Counted from the first letter of the stretch, positions 31,420 to 62,583 are shown. The stretch: 64,000 nucleotides of DNA from Candidatus Hydrogenedentota bacterium (GCA_963668025.2 CAXXTH010000012.1:96001-160000), one strand, 5' to 3'. The notes: generated from the sequence alone by a model not told the origin. Numbers and translations are program-made.

Positions 31420-33786
31420 CTATCTTTCGGCATCCTCTATAGTGTAGTCAAGCAAGGGCCGGATGACGATATCTTCAAAATCCACTTCCGCGTTTTCGGC
31501 AAAGAAAAACAAGCGCTCCCCGCGTTCGTTGTTCCGGGTAATAATCGTCCGGCTATTGTTGATGCATACATCAATGATGTCATCCTTCATCACAATGTCG
31601 AGCATGAAAGGCTGCTCCAGCCCTTCCACGCCATCAATGCGATAGGGAACAAACCATGCAGCGGCAGGTTCTTTAGCGAGCTGGCCATTTTCCGGCATGC
31701 CGAATTGCACCTGTTTCGTCTCCGGTGCAAATTGAAGTTCACATCCTTTTTCATATAATCCAGCGCCACGGAAACAGAGTCCAAAACGTCCCGTTTTCCC
31801 AGAAGGCTTTACGAGCATGGTGATGCGCGCATTCCGCGGCATCGCGGCCTGCATGCCCATTTCGAGAGCGCCCGTGGAATGCACCTGGACGGCGGACGCA
31901 TCGCCTGAAGCATGCGGGGTCAATGAGGCAAATGGCCGTGTGATGGGCTGGCCTGATGGCGGGATAAATTCATCGGCAAACTTGAGCCCGAGAGCGCCGT
32001 CGTTATGCTGAACGAGTTCCCAAACCACCAAGTTCCCGCCCCATCCCTCGTCAGGGATGAAGCCCGCCGTCAAGCGCCTTTCACCTATGGGAAACGCCTT
32101 GGGAACTTTAAGGATGCTCATTTCCATCAGCAATGGCTGGCATGTCCAAGGCCCAAAAGGCTCGGAGGAACGCCACGCTTTGCGCAACGAACCTTCCAGC
32201 AAATAGCGCCAGCCGTTCCATTCGAAATAATCCGGGCAAATGAATTCGCGTTCGTTCTCCACCAATAGCGGTTTTGGCTGAGGCTTCCAATTTCGTAGAT
32301 CCGTAGAGGTAAACCAATTGAGCGTATATTGTTTATCGGCATTCATGCCGCCCATTGCGAAAAGATGATATTGCTTTTCTCTTTCGTCCCATATCACCGC
32401 ATTATCCAGCAACTCATCGATAATGGGCTTCTCCGATTCTTTGCTGAAGTGAATGCCGTCTTTACTCGTGGCGGTGAAAATCCCTCCTTTCCGGCTCGGC
32501 AGCATGGACATCACCGGATACTGCATGTAAAACGTATCGTCTTTATATACGCATGAACCCGTGCCGACAAAGCCCTCATATTGTTCCGTAATCGGTATGG
32601 CGAGGGGATGGTGTTGCCAATGAATCAAGTCTTGCGAGGATGTATGCGCGACCTGCAATCCGCCATGCCCGCTCCACCATTTTCCATGATGATTGCGCCT
32701 TCCGAGCAGATAATACAGGTGAAGCGTATCATTCACGTACAGGGGAATGCAGTCGCCCAGCCGTACATTGAAACCATTTGGACGGAAGTATTGGATGCGT
32801 TCTGGCGTCCGGCCCAGCATCTCGATGGCCCGTGTTTTAGCGTGGCCCGGCCCGCCGCTAAGCAGTTCGATTTCCTGATCGGAGAGGGCGCGATTCCAGA
32901 CTGCCACATGATCGATCTCGCCATGGAATCCCGATACCTCTTCCCCATGGGAAGAGGCTGCTCCAATCAAAAAAGGCGCGGCATTCGTGCGAAGGTCGCC
33001 GATGGGGAATTCTTCATCCATCAGCACGCCATCCACAAACAACTGCACCTTTGGGCCGGTGAACCGAATAACGAGGCCATGCCAGTCTTTCGCGCCAATG
33101 AGCCCCACCGGCGCACAAATGCGCATGCACCCCTTCCTGGCCTCTTCCAATATGCGGGGATCGCCGTCTCCCGATATTTTACCTAGAGTGTCCAACGCCT
33201 CCCGTGATGGACTCAGGCCTATCCGGAACTCGATGAGTTGGCTGGAAGCACTCACCCGCTTATACCCATCGGGCTGGTGAAACAGGAAGTATTCTTCCGT
33301 AGGAACAGTCTGGCCGAAGATGTTTTGAATGGTTTGCGGTTTGGCCGCGCCGTCTGTGCAAGAGAGATAATAACTTGCCGTATCGTCTTCTCCCGATTTG
33401 CCCAGAATGGGCGCATCCCATTCGCCCGATGGAACACGCATGCGGATGCAGATACTCATCTCACTGCCGGAAAGCGCCAGCCGCTTTTCATCTTCTGCTG
33501 GAACACTCAGGTATCCTCCGTCGAAGACAGCGGCATAACCATCGCCGCAGGATTGGAGCGAGGCATCCCGCTCCAAGCCTTGCAAAGAAACGCCGGTTTG
33601 CACCGCACCGTGAATCACAAGAGAAAGGATGTTTGGTTCTTTATTCTCCTCTGGACTCATCGTCCAATAGGCAGCAGCGTCATGGAAAGGGGACTCGGCC
33701 TCGCCATATCCGATAGCCGGATAGGCGCATGCGCACCAAATCGCTATTGCCCATATGCCCGCGCGGTTTGCCATTATTTCTTTCAT
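31420..33786 (-). CDS. Secreted LamG + GH32-like beta-propeller glycosidase (non-canonical)
   Basis: Signal peptide; LamG (GEIDHVAVWNRALS); GDCIPLY, AHTSSQDLIHW, GTGS, SxDL repeats, ICPDYF; C-terminal beta-sandwich. Confidence 0.8.
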   Translation of the reverse strand: MKEIMANRAGIWAIAIWCACAYPAIGYGEAESPFHDAAAYWTMSPEENKEPNILSLVIHGAVQTGVSLQGLERDASLQSCGDGYAAVFDGGYLSVPAEDEKRLALSGSEMSICIRMRVPSGEWDAPILGKSGEDDTASYYLSCTDGAAKPQTIQNIFGQTVPTEEYFLFHQPDGYKRVSASSQLIEFRIGLSPSREALDTLGKISGDGDPRILEEARKGCMRICAPVGLIGAKDWHGLVIRFTGPKVQLFVDGVLMDEEFPIGDLRTNAAPFLIGAASSHGEEVSGFHGEIDHVAVWNRALSDQEIELLSGGPGHAKTRAIEMLGRTPERIQYFRPNGFNVRLGDCIPLYVNDTLHLYYLLGRRNHHGKWWSGHGGLQVAHTSSQDLIHWQHHPLAIPITEQYEGFVGTGSCVYKDDTFYMQYPVMSMLPSRKGGIFTATSKDGIHFSKESEKPIIDELLDNAVIWDEREKQYHLFAMGGMNADKQYTLNWFTSTDLRNWKPQPKPLLVENEREFICPDYFEWNGWRYLLEGSLRKAWRSSEPFGPWTCQPLLMEMSILKVPKAFPIGERRLTAGFIPDEGWGGNLVVWELVQHNDGALGLKFADEFIPPSGQPITRPFASLTPHASGDASAVQVHSTGALEMGMQAAMPRNARITMLVKPSGKTGRFGLCFRGAGLYEKGCELQFAPETKQVQFGMPENGQLAKEPAAAWFVPYRIDGVEGLEQPFMLDIVMKDDIIDVCINNSRTIITRNNERGERLFFFAENAEVDFEDIVIRPLLDYTIEDAER

Positions 33787-33811
33787 TGCGTGGCCTTCCT
33801 CTATTTCTGAG

Positions 33812-34729
33812 TTATGCTTTGAATGCGCCCGAAGTTACGCCTTCAATAAACGGCTTGGTGGCATACACGAATACGAGGAGCAATGGAATGCTGGCCACCA
33901 CATAGGCGGAAAAGAGCGTGGAAAAGTTTTGTCCATATTGGGAAGTGGCCATGACAAAAAGGCCTGATGCAATGGGATGCATGCTCGTATCGGGAAGCGT
34001 GACGAACGGCCACATGAAATTATTCCAGGTGCCGAAAACCGACATGATCAACACCACGGAAACGACCGGCTTTGACAAGGGCAGCACCAGCCTGGAATAG
34101 ATCTGGAAATGGCCCGCGCCGTCGATACGGGCGGATTCGAATAAGTCTTCCGGCAGCCCTTCAAAAAAGCTCTTAAAGATAAACGTGGTCAGCGCTTGCT
34201 GGCCCGCTATGCCAGGCAGGATGATCACCCAATACGTGCCCAGCATGCCCATGGACTTGACGATCATATACGAGGGAACAAAGAGCAGCACGCCGGGGAA
34301 CATCATCGCGGACATAATATAGTAGAAGAAAAGCTGTTTTCCCGGAAAACGATAGCGCGATAACACATAACCAGTGACGGAGGAAAGCACGATAACGCCC
34401 GCCGCGATGGAGGTGGAGAACATCAGGCTGTTCAAGATATATTTCCGCAGAATGTCCCATCCCAATTGATAGCCCCGCGTGGCGGTATCGATGTTGTTCA
34501 GGAGCGTTTCGCATAACGCGCCGAAGGAAGGCTGCTGCACACCGCCTCCGGCCCATGCGGAAAGAGCGGCGCACATATTGTTCACGGCTTGCGGCAATCC
34601 AAAAAAAGTGTGGTATAGTTCGCTATTCGAACGGAACGAATTGTTCAATACAAATAGGAACGGAAGCAAGGTAAGCCCCGCCAGCAGGAGCAGGCTACCG
34701 TGCAGCAAGAACGCGCGAAGCCGTTTCAT
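33812..34729 (-). CDS. Carbohydrate ABC permease (MalG-like)
   Basis: EAA loop FESARIDGAG; WNNFMWP. Confidence 0.92.
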   Translation of the reverse strand: MKRLRAFLLHGSLLLLAGLTLLPFLFVLNNSFRSNSELYHTFFGLPQAVNNMCAALSAWAGGGVQQPSFGALCETLLNNIDTATRGYQLGWDILRKYILNSLMFSTSIAAGVIVLSSVTGYVLSRYRFPGKQLFFYYIMSAMMFPGVLLFVPSYMIVKSMGMLGTYWVIILPGIAGQQALTTFIFKSFFEGLPEDLFESARIDGAGHFQIYSRLVLPLSKPVVSVVLIMSVFGTWNNFMWPFVTLPDTSMHPIASGLFVMATSQYGQNFSTLFSAYVVASIPLLLVFVYATKPFIEGVTSGAFKA

Positions 34730-35658
34730 GCCTTACCCTCCAATTCTTCCGTCGAGCGTACGTATCGAAACGCCATCAAGGTCAATCCCAGAATTAAGAA
34801 GAACAGGCACACCCCGACCGCGCACGCATAACCCATTCGTTGAAAACTAAAGGCATTGAAGTACATCCAGAGCGCGGGAACCATGGTGCGGAAACCGGGG
34901 CCGCCCCGCGTAAGGATGAAAATACCTTCATAGGTCTGCACGCCGCCGATGATCGTCAGCACCATGATCAGCTTGAGCTGGCTGAACACCATGGGGATGT
35001 CTATGCGGATGAATTTACTAACGCCGGTGCAGCCCTCGAGCTTGGCGGCTTCATTCACGCTGGTGGGGATGCTGGCCAATCCGGCATAGTAGATGAGTAC
35101 ATTGATTCCGCCAATCCAGGGGAATCCCACGAAGGCTATCGCCAGCAAAGCGGTCTTAGGACCGCTGAGCCAGCCCTGGCTCATACCGCCCAGCCCAATC
35201 ATGCGAAGCACTTCGTTGAACATGCCCGATTCATTGTAAATCATGCCGCCCCAGATCAACTGCACGGCCACGCCAGGAGCGACAATAGGCACTAAGAACA
35301 GGAGCCGGTATAAATACCTCCCCCGTTCCTTATCGAGCGAAAATATGAGCTTGGCCACGATGAGCGGGACGGTGATCTGGATAGCGGTTCCAAACAAGGT
35401 GAGCAGCAGCATGTTGATGACGGCTGGATAGATGACGGGATCCATGGTGAATAGTTCCACGTAATTCCGCAAGCCGACAAACTCGGATTCGCCGCCGACT
35501 TCAAACTTGAATAGCGAATTCACGAACGCCCACAAAACCGGTAAGTAAATGAAGACCGCCATCAAGATGGCTGGAAGGGCGAGAAGGGCGTAGCAGCTCA
35601 CACTAAACCGCTGTTTCTCGCTCATATGCCATAGGAATGGTTTGATGGATTTATTCAT
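34726..35658 (-). CDS. Carbohydrate ABC permease (MalF-like)
   Basis: FVGLRNY, EAAKLEG and LTRGGPG motifs; start overlaps the SBP stop. Confidence 0.92.
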   Translation of the reverse strand: MNKSIKPFLWHMSEKQRFSVSCYALLALPAILMAVFIYLPVLWAFVNSLFKFEVGGESEFVGLRNYVELFTMDPVIYPAVINMLLLTLFGTAIQITVPLIVAKLIFSLDKERGRYLYRLLFLVPIVAPGVAVQLIWGGMIYNESGMFNEVLRMIGLGGMSQGWLSGPKTALLAIAFVGFPWIGGINVLIYYAGLASIPTSVNEAAKLEGCTGVSKFIRIDIPMVFSQLKLIMVLTIIGGVQTYEGIFILTRGGPGFRTMVPALWMYFNAFSFQRMGYACAVGVCLFFLILGLTLMAFRYVRSTEELEGKA

Positions 35659-37255
35659 TGGGAAGATCCTTATAGGCGGCCCGGAGCGGCGCAAGCGCCT
35701 CCCATGTAGCTTGCATGTTCTCCATATCGACCTTCTTCCGTTCGAGATGATTTACACAGGCCGCGCGGATATTCGAGACTTGCCAGTCCATGAAACCTTC
35801 AAGGCTGATGCCGTCATTCAAATACATCTCCAGCATGCGTCGCTGGATTTCCAAGAACTTCAAATCAAACGAAAACATCCACTTCGTCGATGTATACCGG
35901 CGCTCCAATATCTCCGCGAAAGGATGCAGCGGAGGAAGCGGTTCCACGCCACGGATGTTGGGAATGAAGCAAGGATATTCATTCACGATGCGCGTGTAAT
36001 TGTCTGGCATGCAAAGAAAGTGAAGAAATCTGACCACCTGCTGGAGGCGTTCGGAGCGATTCATGCGTTCCTGCATGGGAAGCGCGGGCTCGGTGTCGCC
36101 CACAGCAGTGTTCGTAATCTCAAATTGCGTTCCAGAGCCGCCGATAACGCACATGTCCACTGGTTCCGTAACAAAGGGGCTTGTTTGCGGCGTTAGGGGA
36201 GGCGGATAAAAAACACCCCATTCGAAATCCAGCGAGTTGTCGGCTTGCAATCGATACGTGATGGGGCTCGAATTCCACATCATGGCGGCGTGCTGGGTGA
36301 CGAATTCCCTCAGAAAATCGGTGCTGTTCAAATCTTTATTGCAGTAGGCGCGCAGGCCTTTCATCACGCGCCACAATTCGAGATAACGGGGATCCTGATT
36401 CGTGAAGAATTTTTTGCCGAAGAGAAAACTGAGTTCATCCGCATCCAGATAGCCCTTCATGTATTTTTCGCGTGCGGCATCTCCCTTGAGGACATCAATG
36501 CCGGGCAGAATCGAAAAATAGAGCTGGTTAAACAGTATATCGGTACACCAATCGTTGAACGTGTCCGTGTTCATCAAGAGGGGAATATAGCCTAATGCGC
36601 GAATCTTCGCCATGCCATCGTGCCATTCTTCCCAGGTAGTGGGAGGCTCCACACCCGCTTGGCGGAAAATCGTTTTATTGTAAAAAATGCCCGTTTCGAC
36701 CATGTCGAAGCTGAGGCAATAGTTGCGCCCATCCGGCGCGGCCTTGCCGCGGCTAATCGCCTGGTAGCGGAACATGTCCCACCATGAGTAATAACCGGGA
36801 AGAGAAGGATCGCCCTTTTCCTGGATATAGGGATTCGGAGCGTTTAGAAACGCATCGAGCGGAACATACCATCCTTTGTGGACATCCACCCACACCTCTT
36901 CGACGTTGACATTGATAATGTCAGGCGCCTGCCCGCTGCTGAGTTGGGTCACCAGATATTCCCGGGCGAAAGGCACATTCACGAGCTCGATCCGCACGTC
37001 CGGATTTTCCGACTCGAAATCTTGAATGACATCGCGCAAGCCATGGATCTTATCGCCGATTCCAAAGGGCACGGAACCGGGCATATAGGGAACGCCCGGT
37101 GAAAACTTGATCACATACTTTGCGTTCTTTTGACGTTGAAGCTCCGGCCCGCCATTGGAGGCGGCTCCGGGCGTTCTGGGCCACAGCAGCCATGCGCTGG
37201 CGATGAGCACCACGGCTAGTGAGCCCCATCGAAAGATAGCGCGTGCATAGTTCAT
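35651..37255 (-). CDS. Carbohydrate ABC solute-binding protein (family 1)
   Basis: FESENPDVRIE, SGQAPDI and IFYNKTIFRQAGVEPPTTWEE motifs; N-terminal TM/signal. Confidence 0.88.
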   Translation of the reverse strand: MNYARAIFRWGSLAVVLIASAWLLWPRTPGAASNGGPELQRQKNAKYVIKFSPGVPYMPGSVPFGIGDKIHGLRDVIQDFESENPDVRIELVNVPFAREYLVTQLSSGQAPDIINVNVEEVWVDVHKGWYVPLDAFLNAPNPYIQEKGDPSLPGYYSWWDMFRYQAISRGKAAPDGRNYCLSFDMVETGIFYNKTIFRQAGVEPPTTWEEWHDGMAKIRALGYIPLLMNTDTFNDWCTDILFNQLYFSILPGIDVLKGDAAREKYMKGYLDADELSFLFGKKFFTNQDPRYLELWRVMKGLRAYCNKDLNSTDFLREFVTQHAAMMWNSSPITYRLQADNSLDFEWGVFYPPPLTPQTSPFVTEPVDMCVIGGSGTQFEITNTAVGDTEPALPMQERMNRSERLQQVVRFLHFLCMPDNYTRIVNEYPCFIPNIRGVEPLPPLHPFAEILERRYTSTKWMFSFDLKFLEIQRRMLEMYLNDGISLEGFMDWQVSNIRAACVNHLERKKVDMENMQATWEALAPLRAAYKDLPNE

Positions 37256-37296
37256 TTGAGGCATCTCTCCGTTCAAGGCCATTTGGCCGCGAAGAT

Positions 37297-39546
37297 TTAG
37301 CAGAGCGGGCAAATCCGTATGGAGTCGAAAACGGCTTCACATCCCTGCGCAAAGAAAAATAGGCGGCTGCCTTCCGAAGCATCGCGAACGGCCAGCGTGC
37401 GCCGATTGCCGATACAGGCGTGAATGATATGGCCATCGGCCACAAGCTCCAGCGAAAACGGCTCCGTGATCTCATCCACATCCGTGATCCGCGCCGATGT
37501 CCCATCACCGGGCATTCCATCCTTCGGGCGGCTAAACTGCACGCATCGATTCGCTAGATCGAATTGCAGTTCACAGCCATCGGCGTATTCTCCAGAACCG
37601 CGCAGGCACAACCCGAATCGGCCTAGACCAGATTTGGGCGTTACGCGCACAGTGATGTGGGCGTTTTTCGGCGCATGTTCGAGCGTGGCGATTGCCATGT
37701 TTCCACCCGGCTTGAGTTCGATACGTTCCGCACTGCCGAAGGCGGCGGATGTGAGTGCGGTGAACGGCAACGGGAGCGGCTCTTTCTCAGGAGGGATCAG
37801 TTCACTCGGGAACTTCACGCCCAAACGGCCTTCCTCGTCCTGGACCAATTCCCGAATGATGATGTCGCCGCCCCACGAGCCGGGGTTATCGCTCACCCAG
37901 CCGATTTGAATCCGCCGGTTTCCGAAAAAGGCGGCTGACTTGGGTACGTACGACGAGTCGGGCGTGCTGGGCCGCTGCATTTGCCACGGCCCGAAGGGCT
38001 GTTTCGATTTCCATATGGTGGATTTACATCCCGCCACGATGTAATGCCAGCCATTCCATTCAAAATAGTTTGGGCAGTACAAATGATTTTTGATGTCATC
38101 ATTGGTGAGGATGGGCGCATCCTGCTGTTGCCATTGGCGCAGATCACTGGAAACAAAGTGCGCCAGCTCGGTGCGCTCCGCGCCTGGCCGCTCGGAAAAG
38201 GTGATTAAATGAAACAGGCCCGAAGCATCCTTGAAAACATCGGCATCGCCTCCCTCCAATAACGGGCGCGGATCCTGTTTCACGAAGTGAACGCCATCGG
38301 CGCTTACCGCCAGTTGAATGCCGCCGGGGCGTGATTTTGGCATGCAGGTAAGCGTCGGGAAAAAGAGGTAATACACGCCCTCGTGCAATATGCAGGAACC
38401 GGTGCCATGCCAGCCTTCCCACTGATCGGAGATCGGCACGGCCATCGGCAGAAAATCCCAGTGGAGCAGATCCTTGGTAGTCATGTGCTCTACTTGAAGG
38501 CCGCCATGCCCGCCCTGCCATTTGCTATGCGAACTGCGCCGAATGGTCAAGTAAAACACATGCAGTTTCTCGCCATCGAAATAGGGGAAGCAGTCCCCCA
38601 CTTTCTTGTTGTGTCCTCGCGGACGCCAGTGCAGGCGAACTGGATGGCGCAGCCCGAGAAAACGGCTTTCGCTACCGGCGGCCACCGCTGGGCCGCCGCT
38701 CAGCGTGATGATCTCGCCATCGTTCAATGCGCGCGGCCACAACGCGACATGGTCGATCTGGCCGTTGAATCCAGCGGCCGGCACTCCCCGGTTCATCGCG
38801 GCTCCGATTAGGAAGGGAACCGCATTTTGGCGTAGCGTCCCGATGGGATATTCCTCATCGAGCAATACGCCATCGACGAAAAGCTGTAGCTTTGGGCCAG
38901 TAAACCGCACGATCACATCATGCCATTCCGGCGCACAGCCGTGCGCCATGGGTGCGCCGATATGCAGGACGCCTTGATTCGCTTCGTGTACTAACACTGG
39001 GGAGTTGTATGGATAATGATTCAGCCATTCCACTGTTTCTTCCGGCAGATTTCCGCCCCAGGTGAATTTGAGAAGCGGAGCAGGTGTTTCTGGTTGTTTT
39101 ATTGGAGAAGTATCCTGTTCCGCATGAAAGAAGGCCTTCTCCTTGCGTTCCGCGCTCTGGCCCGCATCTGCTTCAATTTTCACGCCCGTGTTTCCGAGGA
39201 AGTAACTCGCCTCTTCTTCACCGCCGTATTTTCCGGCCAATGGCGCGTTCCATGTTCCAGAAAAATCGCGCACCCGCACACAGAGGCTCATCTCCGTTCC
39301 CGATAGATTAAGCTGTTCTTCGTATGCGGAGGGCACACTGAAATAGCCGCCATGGAACTCCGCCGCCATGCCGTCACCGCCGCGCGCTATAGAGGCCTCC
39401 CGTTCACGCCCCTCCAAGGCAACGCCTAAGCGCACATCGCCGTTAATGATCAAGGGAATGCTATCCGCCTGGCCCGACATATGCCACACGGCGAGGGCGT
39501 CATCGAACGGGTGAATTGATCCGTCTGATCGGTCTGATCGATTCAT
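37297..39546 (-). CDS. LamG + GH32-like glycosidase, no signal peptide (non-canonical)
   Basis: Paralog of the 31420 and 39543 genes; GDCFPYF, GTGS, YCPNYF. Confidence 0.8.
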   Translation of the reverse strand: MNRSDRSDGSIHPFDDALAVWHMSGQADSIPLIINGDVRLGVALEGREREASIARGGDGMAAEFHGGYFSVPSAYEEQLNLSGTEMSLCVRVRDFSGTWNAPLAGKYGGEEEASYFLGNTGVKIEADAGQSAERKEKAFFHAEQDTSPIKQPETPAPLLKFTWGGNLPEETVEWLNHYPYNSPVLVHEANQGVLHIGAPMAHGCAPEWHDVIVRFTGPKLQLFVDGVLLDEEYPIGTLRQNAVPFLIGAAMNRGVPAAGFNGQIDHVALWPRALNDGEIITLSGGPAVAAGSESRFLGLRHPVRLHWRPRGHNKKVGDCFPYFDGEKLHVFYLTIRRSSHSKWQGGHGGLQVEHMTTKDLLHWDFLPMAVPISDQWEGWHGTGSCILHEGVYYLFFPTLTCMPKSRPGGIQLAVSADGVHFVKQDPRPLLEGGDADVFKDASGLFHLITFSERPGAERTELAHFVSSDLRQWQQQDAPILTNDDIKNHLYCPNYFEWNGWHYIVAGCKSTIWKSKQPFGPWQMQRPSTPDSSYVPKSAAFFGNRRIQIGWVSDNPGSWGGDIIIRELVQDEEGRLGVKFPSELIPPEKEPLPLPFTALTSAAFGSAERIELKPGGNMAIATLEHAPKNAHITVRVTPKSGLGRFGLCLRGSGEYADGCELQFDLANRCVQFSRPKDGMPGDGTSARITDVDEITEPFSLELVADGHIIHACIGNRRTLAVRDASEGSRLFFFAQGCEAVFDSIRICPLC

Positions 39547-41915: not shown

Positions 41916-41995
41916 ATCGAGTGTTTCCTTTCTCATAAAGACACACGGGTGGCATGGATATCCTTCGCACATGGAATGAAAACTGCTCACGCAGC

Positions 41996-47551: not shown

Positions 47552-47560
47552 GCTTATTCT

Positions 47561-48568
47561 CTATCCTTGCCCATTAAAACCGGCGTGATCAAAATACTGC
47601 GCCTGATGATTGTACGGGAAATCCTCGTCCTGTTCGCTTTCTTGTTTGTATTTCTTGAATTCGACATGGCCGTCCATATACAGGATATTGCCGCCGCCTG
47701 GCACATGGTTGAATGAAAGCGAGTTATACATCCGCCGCCCGGTGTCAGACCAGCCGACTCCAGCCACACTATCCCACATGATAGGAATGGCCGATTGCCC
47801 TTTCGCGGCGCTGGCTGGATTGTTGATGTCCGTAATGAAAAAACGCTCGATCCCTTCCCGAAGCCTCGTGAGAGTTGTATTTGTCATCCCATCGCTTCCC
47901 GTCCACCCGGTCATATAACCAAGGGATTTGTTTGGATTCGATACGGACTCGAAATCGGTATCCGGAGACGGATAGACCGGCACGGAGCCAGGCGTTTCGC
48001 ACACAGTGTCCGTGACATCGATATAGCTATCCGCAAGTTTCGCGTATTTGGTGGCGTACCAGGACTCGCAGCCGCTGTGCATGGCCCCGATGCTCCAGTA
48101 TGTATTCACCAAATAACCAATGTAAATATAAGAGCGTGAGGGCGTCAGCAGATAATAGAGGCACGCCTTCTCCGCTTCCCCGCCTGAACTCGCCTCCGCG
48201 CCAGCTTTCGCCACCAACTCCGCAGGCTCCCCACTCGGCAAGAGCAATTGCGTGCTGGTGTCCATGGCGTGGGAATCCGAGGGACATAGGGCAATGGCGT
48301 AATCATTCCAATAATCCGGGTAAATGTCGCGTGGTTCGGGCGTATACCACCGGATGACATTGGACTGCCGGGGGTATTTCGCGCCTTTCGTCTCGCCCGC
48401 ATACATTTTATAAACCAGCCCCCACTGTTTCAGGTTGCTGGCGCATGAAGCACGGCGGGCGGCTTCTCTTGCCCGCGCTAGCGCAGGCAAGAGGATAGCT
48501 GCCAGGATAGCGATAATCGCGATGACGACCAGCAGCTCGATTAATGTAAAACCCTGTTTATTCTTCAT
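47561..48568 (-). CDS. Prepilin-type N-methylation / DUF1559 / H-X9-DG protein
   Basis: G|[36 protein letters not shown]; [19 protein letters not shown]; GGAGG RBS. Confidence 0.92.
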
Positions 48569-48643
48569 TGCACTGTCCTCCAATTCCGTATGATTCCAGG
48601 TGCGAGGCAGATACCGCCCCACACACCAAGTCACGATATATCA

Positions 48644-49729
48644 TCAGCCAGCACCGCCGAAAGTCGGCATATAGTTAGGTAAATTCCTACCGAAGGCCGT
48701 TGTAACGATATCATCGCCATCCGTTACAGGCGGCTTCGAGGGATAGCGCAGAAACTCCACATGGCCATCCATATAGAGGACATTCGAGCCGCCGGGCACA
48801 TGATTGAAACGAGTGATCGTTTGCATGGTGTCATTGCCGGTCTGTGCGTAGCTGGTATTATTGTTGCCCCAGCCATCCCACATGATAATAATCGAGCTTT
48901 GCCCCAGCGCGCCGGAGGCTGGATTGTTGATGTCCGTTATGAAGAAGCGTTCGACGCCTTCCTTCAAGCGATAATACGAAGAGGGCAGTTTGGTTCCGTC
49001 ATCATCGGTCATAGCGCCGCGCCAGCTCAAGGTGGCCGCATCATCGATATCCATCGCCCGCATGCCCGGCCAATGGTAAATATGCTTGACATCACTGGGG
49101 CCGCCCAGCGCTTGAATGGCTTTTGAATCCAGCGCCACCCAATGCGCGGCGGTGCCGCTCCATTTCATATGCCCGATATGAAGCGCATCCATTAACTGGG
49201 AAGCAGTTCTACACGCCCAAGGCAAATAAATATACGAAGTCGGATTCGATAGGATGGTATTGCGGAGCGCATCCACCTTCCACGTTCCATCGTCCACAAG
49301 ATTATCAAGCTGTTCCTTGATATCGTCCTCCGTGATCACATTGGTGTTATAATAGTTTCGATCACGGGCATCCGATGGGCAGATTAAAAGGTTCACATCA
49401 TTCCAGTATTCCGGATAGATTGCTCCATCGCCCGGGTATGACTCCACGCCTGAAGAGAAAATTTTAGAGTCAATGTTCCCAAGAGCGTTCAGGCCGCTCA
49501 ACAGAGGAGACTCCGAGACCCATTGGGAGCCGCCAGGATAATACCCCTTATTTTCACCCGAGAACATGGTGAAAATAATACCCCATTGCTTCAGATTACT
49601 CGAACATGAAGCGCGGCGGGCCGCTTCCCGCGCCCGCGCCAAGGCAGGCAGCAAAATGGCCGCCAATATGGCGATAATAGCGATAACAACGAGCAGTTCA
49701 ATCAAAGTGAAGCCTAATCTCTTTTTCAT
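48644..49729 (-). CDS. Prepilin-type N-methylation / DUF1559 / H-X9-DG protein
   Basis: G|FTLIELL... N-terminus; [19 protein letters not shown]. Confidence 0.92.
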
Positions 49730-49886
49730 TGCTGGGTTCCTTCCAAACTGTATGAGTATATAGTCCAACGATTTTTATAGACGGCATTGAAGCTTGGGCC
49801 CAACTTCAAGTTACCTGTACCTGGCTGGCGTCAAAGGAGATCCAATCGAATCCCCATGGCCTTCAACTGTATGCATCGCCTTCATC

Positions 49887-49948: not shown

Positions 49949-49981
49949 AATAAATCCTATACAACTATACATCTGCTTAAT

Positions 49982-52414: not shown

Positions 52415-54444
52415 TATTGGCAATTCCCAGAAAATGTCTTCACCCAGCGCGTTCCCTTCAAGGCTGCCGCGGACAGCGCCCGGTCGCCAAGCCGGTCTTC
52501 GATATATGAAGCCACCCTTTTTTCCTGGCTTTTATACCCTTGCCTTAAAAACGTCATGCTGAAACGCCATTGATCAACTGGGCACGCCAGTTTGATGACG
52601 ATGCGTTTAGGAGCGTCTTGCCATTCGACAATACAGGAATGGTCCATGGGAAACCATGAACCGGTCGATTCCGAGCGAATGCACTCGACGCCATTGATCC
52701 AAACGGCCATGGGCACGGTCACGCCCATGACAAGCTGGGCCTTCAAAGGCTCCGACGCGGCCACCTCGCGCACAAAGTAATACACCGCTTCACCCGTAAA
52801 GCTCCCGACATGCTGGGCGTCTACAATGCTCTCGCCGAGTTCGAGCAGCATGGGGCACTCATCTGGAAGGTCTTCCACGAGCAGGCGCTCTTCATCCAGA
52901 TAGGGCCGGTCCAGCCGCACGTGGTTGTGGAAACAGGAATAGAATCCGCCCTCCGTCTGTCCAGGATGGCATGCGAAGCCATCATGGCGGAATAAACAAT
53001 ACTCGTCCTTCTTGGTATCATAGATATCCCAATAAGGGCCATAGACGAGCCATTGGCGCGCCCCGGCGAGTCCGAATACATGTTCCAGCGCTGGCGCGCC
53101 ATCCACCCGCCAGGAAGCCGACACCAAATTCCTGTCCCACATCGTGGGCGAATTCTCCGAACGGCAAACCGAGAATGTGAGCCGCTGGGAACTGTTTGGC
53201 CGAACCGACACCTGCGCCGATTCAGGGGATATGCTTAGGCCGTTCACTGGTTCGAGTTGGAGGTGGCCCCGGGCGATATCATTGCCCGTATTCCTCAAGA
53301 TCAGGCTGACACGCGCCTCTTGCGCCACGTGCAGGATCGGTTCCTGCTCATACTCGACTTCCATCGCGATGGAAGGCGATGGCTTCCGGCCCGCTTGGCG
53401 CGCCGTCACTTCTTTCGCTATATCGTCCGGCACGCCGGTGATTTCCACGGCCTTATTGCGCGCCCACGCCATCTCGATTCCGAGCTTGCAAGTATCCAAC
53501 GCGAAATCGCTAATCAACACATCCTTGTGGCGCACATCGAGCCCGCAGTTCAACTTTTTCCCCAACTGCTCGCACCAATCCTTCGGGAGATTCGAGCCGC
53601 CTTGGATAGCGCCTAAAAGCGCGCCCGCCGTGGCTGCCGTGCAGTCCACATCCCACCCGCAATTGATGGCCAGCGTGAGCGCGCGTTTGAAATCACCCTG
53701 GCACGCGATCAGCGACAAATAGGTAAAGGAAAAATTAATGACGCCTTTCGAGCAATCCCGATGCCCATACATGCGCACCAAAAAGCGCCAGATTTTGCGC
53801 CAGTCTTCCCCATCTGCAAAGGCTTCCGCCACTTCATCCATGACGCGATGCAGGATGCTCTCGGACGGCAATGCGGCGCGCCCAGCCGCCAACGCGTGTT
53901 CGAGCGATCTGGACGAGAGCGCCACCGCCATGGCGGCCGCCCAGAATTGCTCCGCGTAAATCGACTCGCCGATATGATCCAGCTCGCCGTCCATTCGCGC
54001 GAAGCCTGCGGCCAATTCGGGATTGCCCGGGGCGGCGCATCCCCAGATTTCCGCACGAATGGGGCATCCCATGGACTCGCAGAAAAACGTATTGTTGAAG
54101 CGTCCGGACAGCGGGGGATCTATCCCGCGCTCTACGTTGTGTAGAAAGTAGCCATATTCGGAGAAATTATACGCGCAACGATCTTGCCAGAGCTCAACCA
54201 AGTCTTGTTGGGAAAACCACGGCCCGCGCTCTTCTAGCATTTCCAGCCAAACCACCTGTATATCCAGATCGTCATTGGGAATAATCGTATCCGGCCAGAG
54301 CGTCTCCGTCTTCTCGCTGCCGAGAGTTTTATGCCCCTCGAATCGCGCACCTACGGTGCCCCCTATAAATTTCCCAAGCCAAGCACCAAGCACACCCTCT
54401 AAGTAGGCATCAAAAGAGAGATGAGTAGACTGTTCATTCGCCAT
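52414..54444 (-). CDS. ADP-ribosylglycohydrolase-family protein with C-terminal beta domains
   Basis: GAWLGKFIGGTVG, NDDLD, MGCPIRAEIWG and GWDVDCTAATAGALLG motifs; no signal peptide. Confidence 0.88.
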   Translation of the reverse strand: MANEQSTHLSFDAYLEGVLGAWLGKFIGGTVGARFEGHKTLGSEKTETLWPDTIIPNDDLDIQVVWLEMLEERGPWFSQQDLVELWQDRCAYNFSEYGYFLHNVERGIDPPLSGRFNNTFFCESMGCPIRAEIWGCAAPGNPELAAGFARMDGELDHIGESIYAEQFWAAAMAVALSSRSLEHALAAGRAALPSESILHRVMDEVAEAFADGEDWRKIWRFLVRMYGHRDCSKGVINFSFTYLSLIACQGDFKRALTLAINCGWDVDCTAATAGALLGAIQGGSNLPKDWCEQLGKKLNCGLDVRHKDVLISDFALDTCKLGIEMAWARNKAVEITGVPDDIAKEVTARQAGRKPSPSIAMEVEYEQEPILHVAQEARVSLILRNTGNDIARGHLQLEPVNGLSISPESAQVSVRPNSSQRLTFSVCRSENSPTMWDRNLVSASWRVDGAPALEHVFGLAGARQWLVYGPYWDIYDTKKDEYCLFRHDGFACHPGQTEGGFYSCFHNHVRLDRPYLDEERLLVEDLPDECPMLLELGESIVDAQHVGSFTGEAVYYFVREVAASEPLKAQLVMGVTVPMAVWINGVECIRSESTGSWFPMDHSCIVEWQDAPKRIVIKLACPVDQWRFSMTFLRQGYKSQEKRVASYIEDRLGDRALSAAALKGTRWVKTFSGNCQ

Positions 54445-54510
54445 TTTTAAACTCCGGCTATTGTGTTTTTCCTATACCGCATCGGTCGTGCGGTGTCTGT
54501 ATCTGTACAC

Positions 54511-54574
54511 ACTATAGCAAGCTGATTGGGAATTTGCGTTGACATTAGACCCAATTTGTAGCATAATAGACCCA
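54511..54574. promoter_or_regulatory. Divergent promoter region between the sugar cluster and the AraC gene
   Basis: Plus strand: TTGACA (54539)-N17-CATAAT (54562). Minus strand: extended -10 TGCTATAGT (54511-54519). TAGACCCA direct repeats at 54546 and 54567. Confidence 0.65.
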
Positions 54575-55482
54575 TGATCCCGCGCTACCTGTATAGAGAT
54601 TATTGCCCGGAGGCCACCTTCCGCTTTCATCTTTTCTACGGCCGTTTTGGCGCTTCCCCGGTGTATGAACTGCATACCCATGAATTCGGCGAGCTGGTGC
54701 TTGTCAGGCGGGGATACTGCAATCATATGTATGAAGAGACCAAATATCCGTTGGTGGCGGGTGACATTTTTTACGTGAAGCCCGACGAAGCGCATGGGTA
54801 CCTGGATTTATCGCCCGATTTTTCCTACTGCAATATCATCTTTGATCCCGCTCAATTCTTAGAATCCTATCCGGAATTGCTCGGAATACCAGGATACCAT
54901 GCGCTATTTCATGTCGAGCCTTTACTTAGAGTGGACCACAGATTCACGAGCAAACTGCATTTAGAAGGAGAGCTGCTTCGGCAGACGTTTGAATTCATCG
55001 AGGCGCTCAAAAAAGAATATGAAGAAAACCAAGCCGGAATGAAGACGCTTATACAATGCATTCTGGTCCAGCTTGTCGTTTCGCTTGCCCGCCAGATTTC
55101 CCAGCCGCAATCCGCCGCCCGGCATACTGTCCTTCGCCTCTCGCAGGCCATTTCATTCATCGAGCTGAACTATGCGGAACCGATTGTGCTTCAAGACATT
55201 GTCGATGCGGCGTGCATGTCAAAAAGCAGCCTGATACGATGGTTCCAGCAGTGTTACAAAACGTCCCCGCTTCGGTATTTACGCGACCATCGCCTGAAGA
55301 AGGCTTCCATTCTGCTCAAAGAAACCAAAGATTCAATCACGGACATCGCCCTCGCCGTAGGATTTTCCGACTCCAATTACTTCGGACGCGCCTTTCAACA
55401 GTTGTTCAATATGAGCCCCCGTGAATACCGCCGCGAGATACATGAAAAAAACAGCGAAGAGAGCCTGCCGGTGCAACCGTGA
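54574..55482 (+). CDS. AraC-family transcriptional regulator (RhaS/RhaR-like)
   Basis: Cupin HTHEFGELV...EAHGY; C-terminal SITDIALAVGFSDSNYFGRAF..SPREYR. Confidence 0.93.
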   Translation: MIPRYLYRDYCPEATFRFHLFYGRFGASPVYELHTHEFGELVLVRRGYCNHMYEETKYPLVAGDIFYVKPDEAHGYLDLSPDFSYCNIIFDPAQFLESYPELLGIPGYHALFHVEPLLRVDHRFTSKLHLEGELLRQTFEFIEALKKEYEENQAGMKTLIQCILVQLVVSLARQISQPQSAARHTVLRLSQAISFIELNYAEPIVLQDIVDAACMSKSSLIRWFQQCYKTSPLRYLRDHRLKKASILLKETKDSITDIALAVGFSDSNYFGRAFQQLFNMSPREYRREIHEKNSEESLPVQP

Positions 55483-55516
55483 CAGGCTCTCTCTCGCAGT
55501 CCCGAATGGTATAGGT

Positions 55517-57517
55517 TTACCGCGCGATTTTACGCCGCGCACCGAATGCTAAGCCTGCACCCAGCAATATCAAACCAGCAACGCCCATGACGGGAAGCGC
55601 AACCGTGGAATCCGGATCCAAGGGATCGCTTCCACTCGACACTTCCAAACCGTCGTTGTAGCTGTCGCCATCCGTATCTTCCAGAAGCGGATCGGTGCCG
55701 TACGTGTTCACTTCATCGCCATCCGACAGATCATCTCCATCGGTGTCCGCGACATTCGGATCCGTTCCGATAGTTTCTTCTTCCGAATCCGAGAGGCCAT
55801 CGCCATCCGTGTCGGTCTCAGCGCCCATCAGCGCGCTTTCATCAGCGCCAATGTCATTCACTGTATTGCCCAGCGGGCGCGAATCGCCATCCACGTCAAT
55901 GGTGAGCGTCGAACCAGTGGCCGCACCCAGCGCGGGAGAGGCGGCGTCACTGATATGGCCATCATCCGTCAACATCGGATCCAGATGAATCGTGTCTGCT
56001 GGCAAGCTCGAACCCTCGCCCGTAATGCCGGAGAACTCTTCATCATACGAAATATTGTGCGCGCCCGTGACGGCTCCGAGCAGGAAAATACCGAACTGCG
56101 CATCGCCGGAGCAATCCACGATGCTGTTATTCATCGTGAACGAACCAGCGGGATCACCCAGCGTGTACGTATGGAAATACGCGCCCGCATCCGCGATGAT
56201 CGTGCAATGGTTCAAATCAATTATGGAACCAGCGCCAGCGCCTTGGTCCGACGCCTCCAGATTGATCAACACGCGGTCGAAAATGGTGTTCGTGGCAGTC
56301 AGCTTGAAGGGATATTCCGTATGCACATCCGCCATGGCGCTATCAATACGCGCCGTGCCCGACAACACGCAACGGTCGAGGATCAGATTCGGCCCCACGC
56401 CATCGGAAGCCGTCGGTTCACGCACCAACTGATTACCGTTCCAGTCCATATTCTCGAGTGTCAGATAGCCGTCAATCAGCTCAAACGCTTGAAAACTGGT
56501 CGTCCCAGCATTCAAGGAGCCATTCTTGATGGTCACGTGCTCATCATTTGAAACATCGATGAGGACATCCCAGCCGCGCACGAATGTGCAGCCATCAAAT
56601 GTCACATCCGTCGTAGCGCCCGTTCCGCCCAAATGGCGCGAGATCAAGCGGCTCCGCAAATCTTCAAACGCGCAGCCATTAAAGATCGCTTTACCGTGCA
56701 ATCTGGGGCCCCAGCTACCTGTGATGGTGCAATTATTGAATTCACTGCGAAGCGCAGGCTCATCGCCAGGCGCCACCCGGTTTTCCACCCAAGGCTTCAC
56801 ATCCTGCCCATTGAATACGCAGTTATTATAGGTCTGATAGCCATTCGTCGAGTTGCCATAATTGATCATGCAACTCAGCCCATTGACGGCATAATTGAAA
56901 TAGCAGTTATTGAAGATTTCACCACCGCTGCTCGGGCCAAATTCCGCCACGGATTCATCGCCAACAGCGGATGTGCCCACAAACTCCACATTCTCGACCA
57001 CCAAGCCAGCGTTGGCCTCCGCATGAATGCATCGTCCCCATTGGGTAGGCGCCGCTTCGAGAATCATCCGGTTCGCCGCACTCTCGCCACGCAACGTCAG
57101 TGAAGCATTCGCATTCGACTCATTATCCCCTTCATACCGGACGCCCAGTACGACAGGAGCCCTTCCTTCATTATCATCCGCGTCCAGCGTCCGCGCATGC
57201 GTCGCGATGGCCGGCGTGACTCCAGCCGCCGCTTCGATTACGATGCCGGGCTGCGTCACATACACATCGCCCTCATAACGCCCCGTCTCTTGAATGGTCA
57301 CGGTGGTGCTTGGGCCATTCGTATCACTATCGTTCACCGCGCGCAGCGCCCGCTCCAGTGCGTCTGTTCCCGCGAAATGCGCCGTGCCCGTGCCCGCGAA
57401 ATCTCCGCTGTCCGCGCCACTGAGATTCACTGTGATGCTCCCAGCAAAAGCAGACCCCGTTGACAACGCCATCAGCACGCATCCAATTACAGAGATACAT
57501 CTTGTTGGCCATTTCAT
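55517..57517 (-). CDS. Secreted/surface beta-helix-like protein with DxDGDG Ca-binding repeats and a C-terminal sorting-like tail
   Basis: Signal peptide; FNNC/FDGC repeats; DIGADE motif; DTDGDGLSD repeats; LPVMG-TM-RRK end. Confidence 0.75.
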   Translation of the reverse strand: MKWPTRCISVIGCVLMALSTGSAFAGSITVNLSGADSGDFAGTGTAHFAGTDALERALRAVNDSDTNGPSTTVTIQETGRYEGDVYVTQPGIVIEAAAGVTPAIATHARTLDADDNEGRAPVVLGVRYEGDNESNANASLTLRGESAANRMILEAAPTQWGRCIHAEANAGLVVENVEFVGTSAVGDESVAEFGPSSGGEIFNNCYFNYAVNGLSCMINYGNSTNGYQTYNNCVFNGQDVKPWVENRVAPGDEPALRSEFNNCTITGSWGPRLHGKAIFNGCAFEDLRSRLISRHLGGTGATTDVTFDGCTFVRGWDVLIDVSNDEHVTIKNGSLNAGTTSFQAFELIDGYLTLENMDWNGNQLVREPTASDGVGPNLILDRCVLSGTARIDSAMADVHTEYPFKLTATNTIFDRVLINLEASDQGAGAGSIIDLNHCTIIADAGAYFHTYTLGDPAGSFTMNNSIVDCSGDAQFGIFLLGAVTGAHNISYDEEFSGITGEGSSLPADTIHLDPMLTDDGHISDAASPALGAATGSTLTIDVDGDSRPLGNTVNDIGADESALMGAETDTDGDGLSDSEEETIGTDPNVADTDGDDLSDGDEVNTYGTDPLLEDTDGDSYNDGLEVSSGSDPLDPDSTVALPVMGVAGLILLGAGLAFGARRKIAR

Positions 57518-57807
57518 GCCTTGGGTCCTCCTGTCCTCATTTGTAGCCTCGCTCTTGGCCGGACGCCATTATCCGGCTCTCGATACTGAGGTTATCAGAA
57601 GAAGTGGAAATCTACCTTCACAAACACGCCAGAAAATCGCACACAATTCTCATTTTCGGTTTTATGCCCCGATTGCCTCATTCCACCTCCAAGCTTGCCC
57701 CTGCTTTTCCACATCAAACAGCAGGCGTCCTTTTTAGTTAACCGGAACAGAGAGCTCATACAATTTATAGCGCCAATAACTATTACTGTAATATGTCAAC
57801 TCTTAGG

Positions 57808-59406
57808 CTATGCACCAGAGGCATCCTGCGTGAACTTCGCGGGAGCCATATCCCAGGCCTGAAGAGATTTGATCACCGCATCTCCCCCTTTAGCGCAAGC
57901 CTTGGCCAACAGCGCCTGCGTACTTTCCGGATATACCATTTGCGTAATACATTGGCGATCATTGGCGAACACTTCTAGCATAGGCTTATCCAAAAACACC
58001 CGCAGTTTCAACGGTTCACCCGGCGCAAGCGCCAGCGGCGCTTCCACCACATAGACCGGTTTCTCGTTCACCGATTGCTCGTTCGCGTTGTATCCGGTAA
58101 AAATGGTCTCGCCATAAAATACATCCGTGCGCAATGTCGAATGCGTCACATCTACTTTAAGTTTCTGCGCCTCCGCGTCATACCAGATCGCCGTTCCTTC
58201 TTTGCCATCCGGCGAACAGCGCACCATGAGGCCCGCCTGTTTCGCACCATTGAGTTCTATCTCCACATCAATCTCCAGGCAATCGCCTTGAACACGGTCC
58301 AGGGTGATTTCCGAGCCTGCTGGAACTGGAAGGTTTTCCATTTGGCGCACGTTACGGCGCAATGTTTCCAGCTCTGGCGCAGGCGTAATATGCACGCCCC
58401 CATCCTTATCTAGAGATAACACGCGGGGAAGGCTTTGAAATCCCGAACCTGTTTTCACCTGGGATGGGCGGATGCGCGGATCGGACACCCAAGCCCAGAA
58501 GATCCGCCGTCCCTTGTCATCCTGCAAGCTCTCGGGAGCGAAAAATTGGCCGCCTGGCCAGTTCATGCGAATATGCTGCTCCGGGTAAAACTTCTCATTC
58601 TCGTACCGCCCGATATAACAGCGCGCCCCCATCTTGTGGCTGATGCACATCAAGCCCCATTTATCATCGCCCAGTTTGAAGAAATCCGGACACGAGCAGT
58701 CTTCGCCATCGACCGTCCAAGTGAGATCCGGATGCTCGTAGAAGGAGTGCAGCGGCGTCCAGTTGACCAGGTCCGCCGATTTGAGCAGATAGAGCGTATC
58801 TTTTTTGTTCGGCAGCGAATTGCCCCCGAGCAGGCAGTAATACGTGTCGCCTTCGAACCACATATAGGGATCCCATACCCCATACACGCCCCATCCCGGA
58901 CTGCCTTCTTTTGTAATGGGAATGACTGGATTTTTCGGATGCTTTTTCCATTGGATCAGATCATCATCTTGCGCCGTGGCCACGCATACGCCCGCGTCGA
59001 TGCCAAACCAGCAAAGCATGGGCGCGCCTTCCTTATTAATAAAGGCATTCCCGCTGAAAATGCCCGTATCGGGATCACCGGCTGCCGGGACCAATGACGG
59101 CGCATGATAGGTCCAATCCACTAAGTTCGTACTCGATAGGTGCCGCCAGCTATGCCCATAGTCAGGAAGCTTCTCATCCTGATAGATGTACATCAGGTGA
59201 TATTTGCCCTTCCAAAAAATACAGCCATTGGTGTCACACGGACACACCACCCCCTGCACGCCTTCTCCCGGCATCGGTCCAATATGATACACAGGCCATT
59301 CTGCATTTCTTGCCATCGTTTGCCCTTCCTGCTCTTCGGCTGATGCACCCGGTGAGGCGTAACAAAACGCCATCGCTGCCGCCATAATGAATGAGAGTTG
59401 CCGCAT
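57808..59406 (-). CDS. Secreted GH32-like glycosidase
   Basis: CDTNG, WRHLSSTNL, FSGN, WDP, SCPDFF, FFAPES, RRIFWAW, SLPRVL and LEVFAND motifs. Confidence 0.88.
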   Translation of the reverse strand: MRQLSFIMAAAMAFCYASPGASAEEQEGQTMARNAEWPVYHIGPMPGEGVQGVVCPCDTNGCIFWKGKYHLMYIYQDEKLPDYGHSWRHLSSTNLVDWTYHAPSLVPAAGDPDTGIFSGNAFINKEGAPMLCWFGIDAGVCVATAQDDDLIQWKKHPKNPVIPITKEGSPGWGVYGVWDPYMWFEGDTYYCLLGGNSLPNKKDTLYLLKSADLVNWTPLHSFYEHPDLTWTVDGEDCSCPDFFKLGDDKWGLMCISHKMGARCYIGRYENEKFYPEQHIRMNWPGGQFFAPESLQDDKGRRIFWAWVSDPRIRPSQVKTGSGFQSLPRVLSLDKDGGVHITPAPELETLRRNVRQMENLPVPAGSEITLDRVQGDCLEIDVEIELNGAKQAGLMVRCSPDGKEGTAIWYDAEAQKLKVDVTHSTLRTDVFYGETIFTGYNANEQSVNEKPVYVVEAPLALAPGEPLKLRVFLDKPMLEVFANDRQCITQMVYPESTQALLAKACAKGGDAVIKSLQAWDMAPAKFTQDASGA

Positions 59407-62493: not shown

Positions 62494-62583
62494 TTGTTTT
62501 TCCTCTGTTTCATTTGTTTTGCTTTCAATATGAAAACTCACATTTAGAAAGAAAGAATACAATAGTCGCTCTTGGGTTACATG

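Follow-up and report, generated by a model that had tools for sequence, protein, structure and literature searches.

The endo-levanase BT1760 of Bacteroides thetaiotaomicron (6R3R/6R3U, 7ZNR, 8A9Y) and the canonical exo-acting GH32 enzymes, for example the Arabidopsis cell-wall invertase (2AC1) and those of Bifidobacterium (6NUM/3PIG) and Thermotoga (1UYP), are the described systems closest to the proteins analyzed here. For BT1760, PMC6560043 gives a catalytic triad of D41/D169/E221, and an E221A mutant which was ~4000-fold less active but still bound levan well, with Gln239 moving into the void. Here we describe a 64,000-nucleotide stretch (“the window”) from a Candidatus Hydrogenedentota bacterium (GCA_963668025.2, CAXXTH010000012.1:96001-160000). 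Within it lies a locus built around five GH32-fold proteins, P0001 to P0005, from three old GH32 sub-lineages, each with the canonical acid/base glutamate replaced. The region is a sugar-utilization region, and the host is a DUF1559-pseudopilin-carrying bacterium of a small phylum. The plant GH1 myrosinase, a retaining enzyme from which the acid/base is naturally absent, and the plant “defective invertases” are natural family members in which a catalytic carboxylate is replaced; such proteins either stay active because their substrate has a good leaving group, or are non-catalytic. Compared with P0001–P0003, these belong to other families or lack other residues, and they serve as analogies only. 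A full-text literature search found no description of GH32 lineages without the acid/base Glu.

The five proteins (positions in the window) are as follows:

31420..33786, minus strand: P0001, 788 aa, signal peptide, LamG-like domain, BT1760-like GH32 propeller and C-terminal beta-sandwich
37297..39546, minus strand: P0002, 749 aa, architecture as P0001 but without a signal peptide
39543..41990, minus strand: P0003, 815 aa (790 aa from a later start), signal peptide, LamG and BT1760-like GH32
45446..47551, minus strand: P0004, 701 aa, signal peptide, LamG, GH32N and GH32C
57808..59481, minus strand: P0005, 557 aa, signal peptide, GH32N and GH32C; a second ATG at 59406, directly before the signal peptide, is the likelier start

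The Pfam domain GH32N (PF00251) was found in all five, with 32–139 bits against a cut-off of 22.1. GH32C was additionally matched by P0004 and P0005, and an N-terminal LamG-like domain was present in P0001–P0004, without significant matches among the PDB sequences. P0001, P0003, P0004 and P0005 had signal-peptide-like N-termini. P0002 begins 12 residues ahead of its first conserved motif in a frame that cannot be extended upstream; it is therefore predicted to be cytoplasmic.

The acid/base column was set by pairwise phmmer alignments to GH32 chains of the PDB, anchored on the CP(D/N)xF strand. In P0005, “dcSCPDFF” aligned to “mlECPDFF” of 6num and 7vco, in P0004 “sgDCPQMF” to “mwECPDFF” of 2ac1, and in P0001 “efICPDYF” to “fyACPDVF” of 6r3u, which is the E221A mutant of BT1760. 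The residues at the site are I516 in P0001 (codon ATT, 32239-32241), in the same column Y490 in P0002 (TAC, 38077-38079) and G547 in P0003 (GGA, 40350-40352), then D456 in P0004 (GAT, 46184-46186) and S263 in P0005 (TCG, 58693-58695). At least three of the five codons lie two to three base changes away from GAA/GAG, which single read errors would not explain. The general acid/base Glu of the EC(P) motif is thus absent from all five, and we describe them as GH32-fold homologs of divergent sub-lineages, not as canonical GH32 enzymes. The blade-1 nucleophile Asp aligned in all five and was invariant in the homolog sets, within a diverged motif (GDCIP, GDCFP, GDCIP, GDIIP and CDTNG in P0001 to P0005). 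The Asp of the RDP motif was also present in all five. Its Arg was found only in P0004 (FRDP), the others reading LDN (P0001), GDA (P0002), SDN (P0003) and WDP (P0005).

A first-pass annotation of the window had listed the same motif strings, and all of them were present in the translations (EFICPDYF, HLYCPNYF, AFGCPNYF, SGDCPQMF, DCSCPDFF, and those of the nucleophile and RDP sites). Its claims that the canonical Glu is missing and the nucleophile Asp kept in all five were borne out by the alignments, the former against solved GH32 structures. It was also right that RDP is altered in four proteins, the Arg being lost in these and FRDP intact in the 45446 gene, that the open reading frames (ORFs) are intact (557–815 aa), and that they form three sequence types (P0001–P0003, P0004, P0005). 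Neutral decay, which it held to be unlikely, is excluded by substitutions that are fixed across large homolog sets. Judged from these sets, the replacements are a lineage-wide conserved trait and not gene decay, and the Glu-less GH32 proteins probably either rely on a re-positioned acid or bind sugars.

P0001–P0004 belong to the branch of BT1760, which was their closest solved relative and their best match in both sequence and structure. Shared with BT1760 are GDxxP, the T of GTG, the CP(D/N)xF strand, the blade-5 xxK, W(G/A)G, and the two-domain layout of a propeller plus a beta-sandwich, the C-terminal domain being of the DUF4975 type. For the AlphaFold2 (AF2) model of P0001 (predicted local distance difference test, pLDDT, 84.5), the five best Foldseek matches were all BT1760 entries, with a target template modeling (TM) score of 0.73. 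Unlike BT1760, which has the full triad and the Arg of RDP, P0001–P0003 carry I, Y or G for E221 and have lost the Arg, and P0004 carries Asp. P0001–P0004 also add the LamG-like domain, and their identity to BT1760 in the Foldseek alignments was only 15–17%. Short, Glu-keeping members of the P0001 family share the BT1760 motifs VGDPMPF, FRDP, ECPD, xGK and WAGN. One of these, P0097, had BT1760 (6r3r) as best match (E = 1.7e-19), with VGDxMPF, FRDP, ECPD and WxGN in common. The five-bladed beta-galactosidase of PMC5342196 was considered as a relative and rejected, because it is of the DUF377/GH130 type and unrelated.

In the P0004 lineage, Asp replaces Glu. Among 121 sequences (the query and the best 120 of 193 matches) the Asp was present in 119/121, FRDP in 121/121 and the nucleophile Asp in 119/119. 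Asp456, which lies in the canonical site, would serve as the general acid/base. When 134 other genomes from the phylum were searched, 14 had P0004-type genes (E ≤ 1e-60).

P0005 has the GH32N + GH32C fold of the canonical exo-acting enzymes. The best Foldseek matches of its AF2 model (pLDDT 84.9) were GH32 invertases (TM 0.74), that is, plant and bacterial exo-acting GH32. It keeps their nucleophile Asp, the blade-1 Gln and Trp, the SG of WSGSA, the DP of RDP and the CPDFF strand. Unlike them, it has Ser for Glu, a four-residue insertion with an invariant Glu-Asp pair, and Trp for the Arg of RDP; the Asn of NDPNG is replaced by Cys, Tyr or Phe, and the blade-5 Gln by Glu (E317, part of an FFAPES motif). 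None of the solved structures among its PDB matches carries this signature. In the model, the inner strand of blade 4 starts at S263, and E260-D261 are found in the loop just ahead.

The signature was conserved in 121 sequences of 54–72% identity from Planctomycetota, Armatimonadota, Omnitrophota, Bathyarchaeia and others: S263 in 120/121, E260 in 120/121, D261 in 121/121, W203 in 120/121 and E317 in 118/121. The best matches included metagenome-assembled genomes (MAGs) labeled Hydrogenedentes. A wider phmmer search of the whole library gave 5552 matches at E ≤ 1e-3. From these, the best 150 cluster representatives were taken together with the query and three GH32 proteins from the same genome but outside the window, and 124 rows covered the four sites. 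A non-Glu residue, Asp at −2 and a non-Arg residue were combined in 90/124 rows, and 73 of these 90 had the blade-5 Glu as well. The non-Glu residues overall were S (47), A (32) and M (12). Fully canonical were 25/124 rows (NDPN, RDP, no insertion, ECP, Gln/Lys), and 9/124 were mixed. The four-residue insertion “xEDx” occurred in the non-Glu rows and was absent from the canonical ones; within it, both the Glu at −3 and the Asp at −2 were near-invariant. Asp261, two residues before the strand and inside this insertion, would be the re-positioned acid/base of P0005, perhaps assisted by Glu260 or the blade-5 Glu317. With the RDP Arg and the NDPNG Asn both gone, the −1 subsite would be reshaped.

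The first-pass claim that cleavage does not need the usual acid fits neither of these two lineages, given an Asp at the site in 119/121 homologs of P0004 and, for P0005, an invariant Asp at −2 (121/121) next to a near-invariant Glu at −3. An alternative carboxylate in “EDCSCP”, which the same annotation had named as grounds for refutation, corresponds to the Glu-Asp pair, as judged by conservation. Its counterpart in “EFICP” of P0001 fared worse, since this Glu (E514) is not conserved in the family.

In P0001–P0003, the site holds no acid. Their family set comprised 121 of 123 rows, because P0007 duplicates P0003 with a different start and P0117, which is truncated, was left out. The site residue was E in 78 rows and D in five, and 38 had no acid. 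In a FastTree phylogeny, from which the trait columns were left out, the E-less state changed five times, with at least three changes forced by well-supported branches. The three window paralogs and one outside sequence formed a clade (support 96) with I, Y, G and G at the site. This was sister to a 16-row “I” clade, and both were part of a 20-row, all-E-less clade (support 100). The end branches of P0001 (0.62) and P0002 (0.88) were long. In an independent scan of 80 metagenome loci, the site residue was E in 43, I in 14, D in nine, V and A in three each, C in two, and G, P and S in one each, with four gaps. The correlated states were as in the family set, with RDP accompanying E/D, INP and a Glu at column 585 accompanying I/V, and H374/L377 accompanying DC[D/E] and Ile.

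Several residues could take over the role of the acid in these proteins. D or E at positions −8 to −2 was more common in E-less rows (30/38 vs 39/78; in the metagenome set 19/24 vs 16/43), which is a hint only, as the rows are related. Two His, H367 and H374, occur in every row of the window clade (5/5 with P0007 included) and of the “I” clade (16/16), and there Leu replaces the usual H377 of the family. P0002 and P0003 both have D463, which follows the RDP Asp at a distance of two residues, and D585, which is part of WGG[D]. Among these candidates we found no carboxylate common to all three paralogs. In P0001–P0003, the acid may come from an acidic residue in the loop ahead of the strand, from a His that has moved (H367/H374) or from D463/D585; otherwise, these proteins may be non-catalytic glycan binders. 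We consider these two options about equally probable.

The other features of the locus and its surroundings are:

30440..31408, minus strand: 322-aa protein, last gene of the operon, without family or PDB match
33812..37312, minus strand: CUT1-type ATP-binding cassette (ABC) importer, presumed oligosaccharide uptake
33812-34729 and 34726-35694, minus strand: CUT1 permeases (BPD_transp_1, two genes)
35651-37312, minus strand: CUT1 binding protein SBP_bac_1, 553 aa
41996..45449, minus strand: CUT2-type ABC importer, presumed monosaccharide uptake
41996-42946 and 42943-44577, minus strand: CUT2 permease and double ATPase
44466-45449, minus strand: CUT2 substrate-binding protein (SBP), ribose-binding-protein-like
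47561..49768, minus strand: two DUF1559 / N-methyl (H-X9-DG type) pseudopilin-like genes
49982..52423, minus strand: WbsX-family protein, 813 aa, distantly GH99-like
52414..54444, minus strand: first operon gene, 676-aa protein, ADP-ribosylglycohydrolase-fold domain at the N-terminus
54574..55482, plus strand: AraC-family regulator, divergent from the operon
55517..57517, minus strand: 666-aa protein with bacterial TSP3 repeats
60187-62619, minus strand: 810-aa protein with a C-terminal beta-lactamase-fold domain
62685 onward (feature block 60187..63983), minus strand: FGGY sugar kinase, extending past the window end

Fifteen tightly packed minus-strand genes (30440-54444) are separated by gaps of −112 to +25 nt, with one exception of 213 nt, which supports a single operon. 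In the direction of transcription, the order is ADP-ribosylglycohydrolase-fold protein, WbsX/GH99-like protein, two DUF1559 pseudopilins, P0004, CUT2 importer, P0003, P0002, CUT1 importer, P0001 and the 322-aa protein. The divergent AraC regulator flanks the operon, and further flanking genes lie outside it. P0005 sits in the next unit, together with the TSP3 protein, the beta-lactamase-fold protein and the FGGY kinase. The full FGGY kinase scored best as a xylulokinase, with 257 bits, under the cut-off of 380 for that family. Past the window end, a ROK kinase and a GH172 (DUF2961) gene were found. The latter encodes 700 aa at G000:C12:166079-168181 (L079:8079-10181, minus strand), and its neighbors are the ROK kinase, a TSP3 protein and another DUF1559 pseudopilin.

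Some further observations concern these neighbors. In the 676-aa protein, only the last ~50–100 residues of the ADP-ribosylglycohydrolase domain matched solved proteins of that fold. A WbsX domain (PF14307) was found at the C-terminus of P0004-type GH32 in two metagenome proteins, P0332 and P0365, which suggests that both parts act on one substrate. The domain is supported by Pfam in both, but only its C-terminal ~90 residues align to the WbsX-like protein of the window, at 29% identity. A full-text search of the literature for WbsX combined with a glycoside hydrolase found nothing. Elsewhere in the window, an 1870-aa sensor protein (17150-22762) with nine or more PAS domains and a weakly matching HisKA domain is followed by ABC_sub_bind, STAS and ABC genes (23508-28658). 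The left third holds transposase-like genes (UPF0236 and DDE_Tnp_1, at 1485-2798 and 12429-13982), and near them a GH27 alpha-galactosidase (3566-5095) and a BD-FAE esterase (7232-8143).

The CUT2 transporter was found next to GH32 genes in other genomes as well. In G043, G044 and G046, all from one related genus (loci L212-L214), a permease 65% identical to that of the window precedes two GH32 genes, one E-type and BT1760-like (FRDP, TPECPDLF), the other of the canonical exo-type (NDPNG, NRDP, STECPD, YATQS). Only in L213 was there an SBP nearby, 75% identical to the CUT2 SBP of the window. On the metagenome contig L134, the whole transporter (55–64% identity) is located after an E-type P0001 relative and before a variant GH32. 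In L023, an Isosphaeraceae MAG, it precedes a P0005-type gene (63–68% identity). Together, these loci show that the CUT2 transporter travels with both canonical and variant GH32 genes. CUT2 transporters specific for fructose exist, and the neighborhood evidence favors fructose or a close analogue as the sugar. In L213 (G044:C270, 580-12885), the RbsB-like SBP is set apart from the permease/GH32 genes by two genes of the opposite strand, one for a sigma-54 response regulator and one for a 1613-aa dCache/PAS/GAF histidine kinase. No ABC ATPase was detected, and the SBP may serve sensing there.

Other neighborhoods were less uniform. Around P0005-type genes (67 genome loci) there were PfkB kinases in four loci and GFO-type oxidoreductases in six, but no conserved partner, the CUT2 transporter occurring in the one Isosphaeraceae locus only. 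Other large neighbor clusters around this family were rejected as shadow ORFs. Recurrent around P0001-type genes (80 metagenome loci) were histidine kinases (12), GH38 (8), URO-D-like proteins (7) and GFO oxidoreductases (6), and only L134 resembled the arrangement of the window. With the P0001 query, a single one of the 40 related genomes yielded such genes. GFO/IDH/MocA-type oxidoreductases thus stood beside variant GH32 in 6/67 P0005-type and 6/80 P0001-type loci, and also in L213; a link to oxidative glycoside cleavage is conceivable.

The genome itself had 11 GH32N matches, the highest number among the 41 genomes compared (others ≤6), and six GH172 genes. It looks specialized on D-arabino-configured furanosides. 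The same holds for GH172 (DUF2961), which includes the alpha-D-fructofuranosidase / DFA I synthase-hydrolase and alpha-D-arabinofuranosidases. GH172 has an unrelated fold, is not among the five proteins and bears only on the possible sugars of the region. Contig C17 of the genome carries a canonical GH32 (NDPNG/RDP/GECPDFF), so the organism has not lost the normal chemistry. A GH32 on C10 reads WEVP, and paralogs of the variant types are encoded on C18 (FDPN/WDP/DDDVSCP) and C23 (FRDS/GGDCP). Glu was present in 24 of 26 GH32 ORFs from the best-scoring PF00251 loci of 40 related genomes, a sample biased toward canonical forms. Five Glu-less proteins out of five within 28 kb are unusual, yet three of them are paralogs and hence not independent. 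Further variants in related genomes, in L188 (G026:C205) and L189 (G014:C9), read “DWDSCME” and “FDP...GDDGACPY”, indicating that non-Glu forms are scattered through the phylum.

Our preferred reading, to which we give about an even chance, is that of a derived fructan-type system for fructose or a different furanoside of D-arabino configuration, in which P0004 and P0005 have a re-positioned acid/base and P0001–P0003 are loop-acid enzymes or binders. The secreted P0001, P0003, P0004 and P0005 would act on a polymer, oligosaccharides would be imported by CUT1 and then meet the cytoplasmic P0002, and the released monosaccharide would enter through CUT2. The transporter, the kinship to BT1760 and the GH172 gene favor fructose, or a different furanose with the D-arabino configuration, over Kdo or ADP-ribose, although a modified or a non-fructan substrate is conceivable. 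The first-pass annotation had proposed a non-fructan glycoside. As stated, this is not supported, because CUT2 counterparts of 65–75% identity stand beside canonical E-type GH32 pairs, P0001–P0004 are related to an endo-levanase, and GH172 lies just past the window. From its further options, an alternative acid residue and non-catalytic binding are the two that are still live.

Several points weigh against our reading, with regard both to the proteins and to the sugar. The case for a re-positioned acid in P0004 and P0005 is one of sequence conservation. In the P0005 superfamily, the co-variation is essentially a clade signature with only two independent contrasts on supported branches, and therefore allows neither statistics nor a proof of compensation. 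The changes in the −1 subsite of P0005 (Asn to Cys/Tyr/Phe, Arg to Trp) argue that its sugar is not bound in the way fructose is by canonical enzymes. D463 and D585 are both absent from P0001. By analogy with the levan binding of BT1760 E221A, a binding role for the naturally E-less P0001–P0003 is quite plausible. The transporter link to a canonical GH32 module stems from one genus (g47) and is a single observation. The nearest solved relatives of the CUT2 SBP are ribose-binding proteins (2ioy, 2.6e-48), and the ADP-ribosylglycohydrolase-fold gene in the operon and the xylulokinase-like kinase nearby fit a pentofuranose as well as fructose.

The alternative that survives best, though doubtful, is that P0001–P0003 are pseudoenzymes, that is, LamG-fused, GH32-derived binders which hold fructan-like chains for hydrolases or transporters, comparable to the surface glycan-binding proteins of Bacteroidota. 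The site residue, hydrophobic or small and variable within the window clade (I, Y, G, G), agrees with this, as do the lost RDP Arg, the long end branches of P0001 and P0002, the signal peptides of P0001 and P0003, and the scarcity of alternative acids in P0001, where only the non-conserved E514 is left. The E221A mutant, as described in PMC6560043, combines the same loss with good levan binding. However, P0002 has no signal peptide, which speaks against these proteins being surface lectins only, and it is hard to see what a lectin would do in the cytoplasm. Every E-less row keeps the nucleophile Asp (122/122), and the transition-state Asp is kept in the window and sister clades. Together with the acids enriched in the loop before the strand and the fixed H367/H374, these residues suggest that the active site is maintained.

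We consider it unlikely that the substrate of the locus is a glycoside other than a fructan (for example a furanoside of the ribo-, arabino- or galacto-type, a ulosonic acid like Kdo, or a furanose linked through phosphate) that is cleaved without an enzyme-borne acid, because it assists itself or has a good leaving group. Such a substrate would agree with the loss of Glu in all five proteins and of the RDP Arg in four, and with the remodeled −1 subsite in the lineage of P0005 (Asn to Phe/Tyr, Arg to Trp/Phe, Gln to Glu). The ribose-type SBP, the ADP-ribosylglycohydrolase-fold and GH99-like proteins within the operon and the xylulokinase-like FGGY kinase near it point in the same direction. 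GH172, located 6 kb past the window on the same strand, acts on D-arabinofuranose as well as on D-fructofuranose, according to PMC10509167 and PMC8605356. D-arabinofuranose, which shares its ring stereochemistry with fructofuranose, is a formal alternative. On the other side, carboxylates are conserved at or next to the site in the lineages of P0004 and P0005, close transporter counterparts adjoin canonical GH32 pairs, and P0001–P0004 fall into the endo-levanase branch. According to PMC10509167, the exo-beta-D-arabinofuranosidase known so far is a GH116 and not a GH32. A DUF4185/GH183 endo-D-arabinanase gave no match in the genome, a weak negative since the search matched no control genome either. 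Nothing in the locus indicates Kdo.

Ordinary levanases or fructosidases with a functionally neutral Glu change, or decaying genes, are very improbable, even though the locus has the architecture of a fructan locus (endo- and exo-type GH32, oligo- and monosaccharide importers) and fructofuranosides are intrinsically labile, because removing the Glu costs BT1760 ~4000-fold in the mutant cited above, the replacements are fixed over deep clades alongside other active-site changes, and the ORFs are all intact (557–815 aa) and tightly coupled in the operon.

We tentatively propose, as a possibility short of an expectation, that GH32 includes at least three deep, widespread and uncharacterized sub-lineages with a missing or moved acid/base, represented by the five proteins. 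The LamG group would be either the first natural retaining furanosidases in which the canonical site offers no enzyme-borne acid, or lectins of a new class. As delimited by sequence, the first would be the large “xEDx-[S/A/M]-CP” clade, with members in Planctomycetota, Armatimonadota, MAGs labeled Hydrogenedentes, Bathyarchaeia and others, the second the Asp-for-Glu clade, and the third the LamG-fused, BT1760-like clades with at least three separate losses of Glu. Automatic annotation labels all these proteins “beta-fructofuranosidase” or “sucrose-6-phosphate hydrolase”, and the fructan-degrading potential of Planctomycetota-type and related bacteria is therefore probably mis-estimated. If the Asp of xEDx is the working acid/base, its carriers would form a recognizable GH32 subfamily with a remodeled −1 subsite and probably a new specificity. 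If P0001–P0003 are acid-less furanosidases, they would represent new chemistry or a new substrate class; if they are lectins, they would be GH32-derived binders in bacteria lacking SusD-type binders. Should the E-less LamG forms bind, or use other chemistry, the known repertoire of the GH32 fold would be extended.

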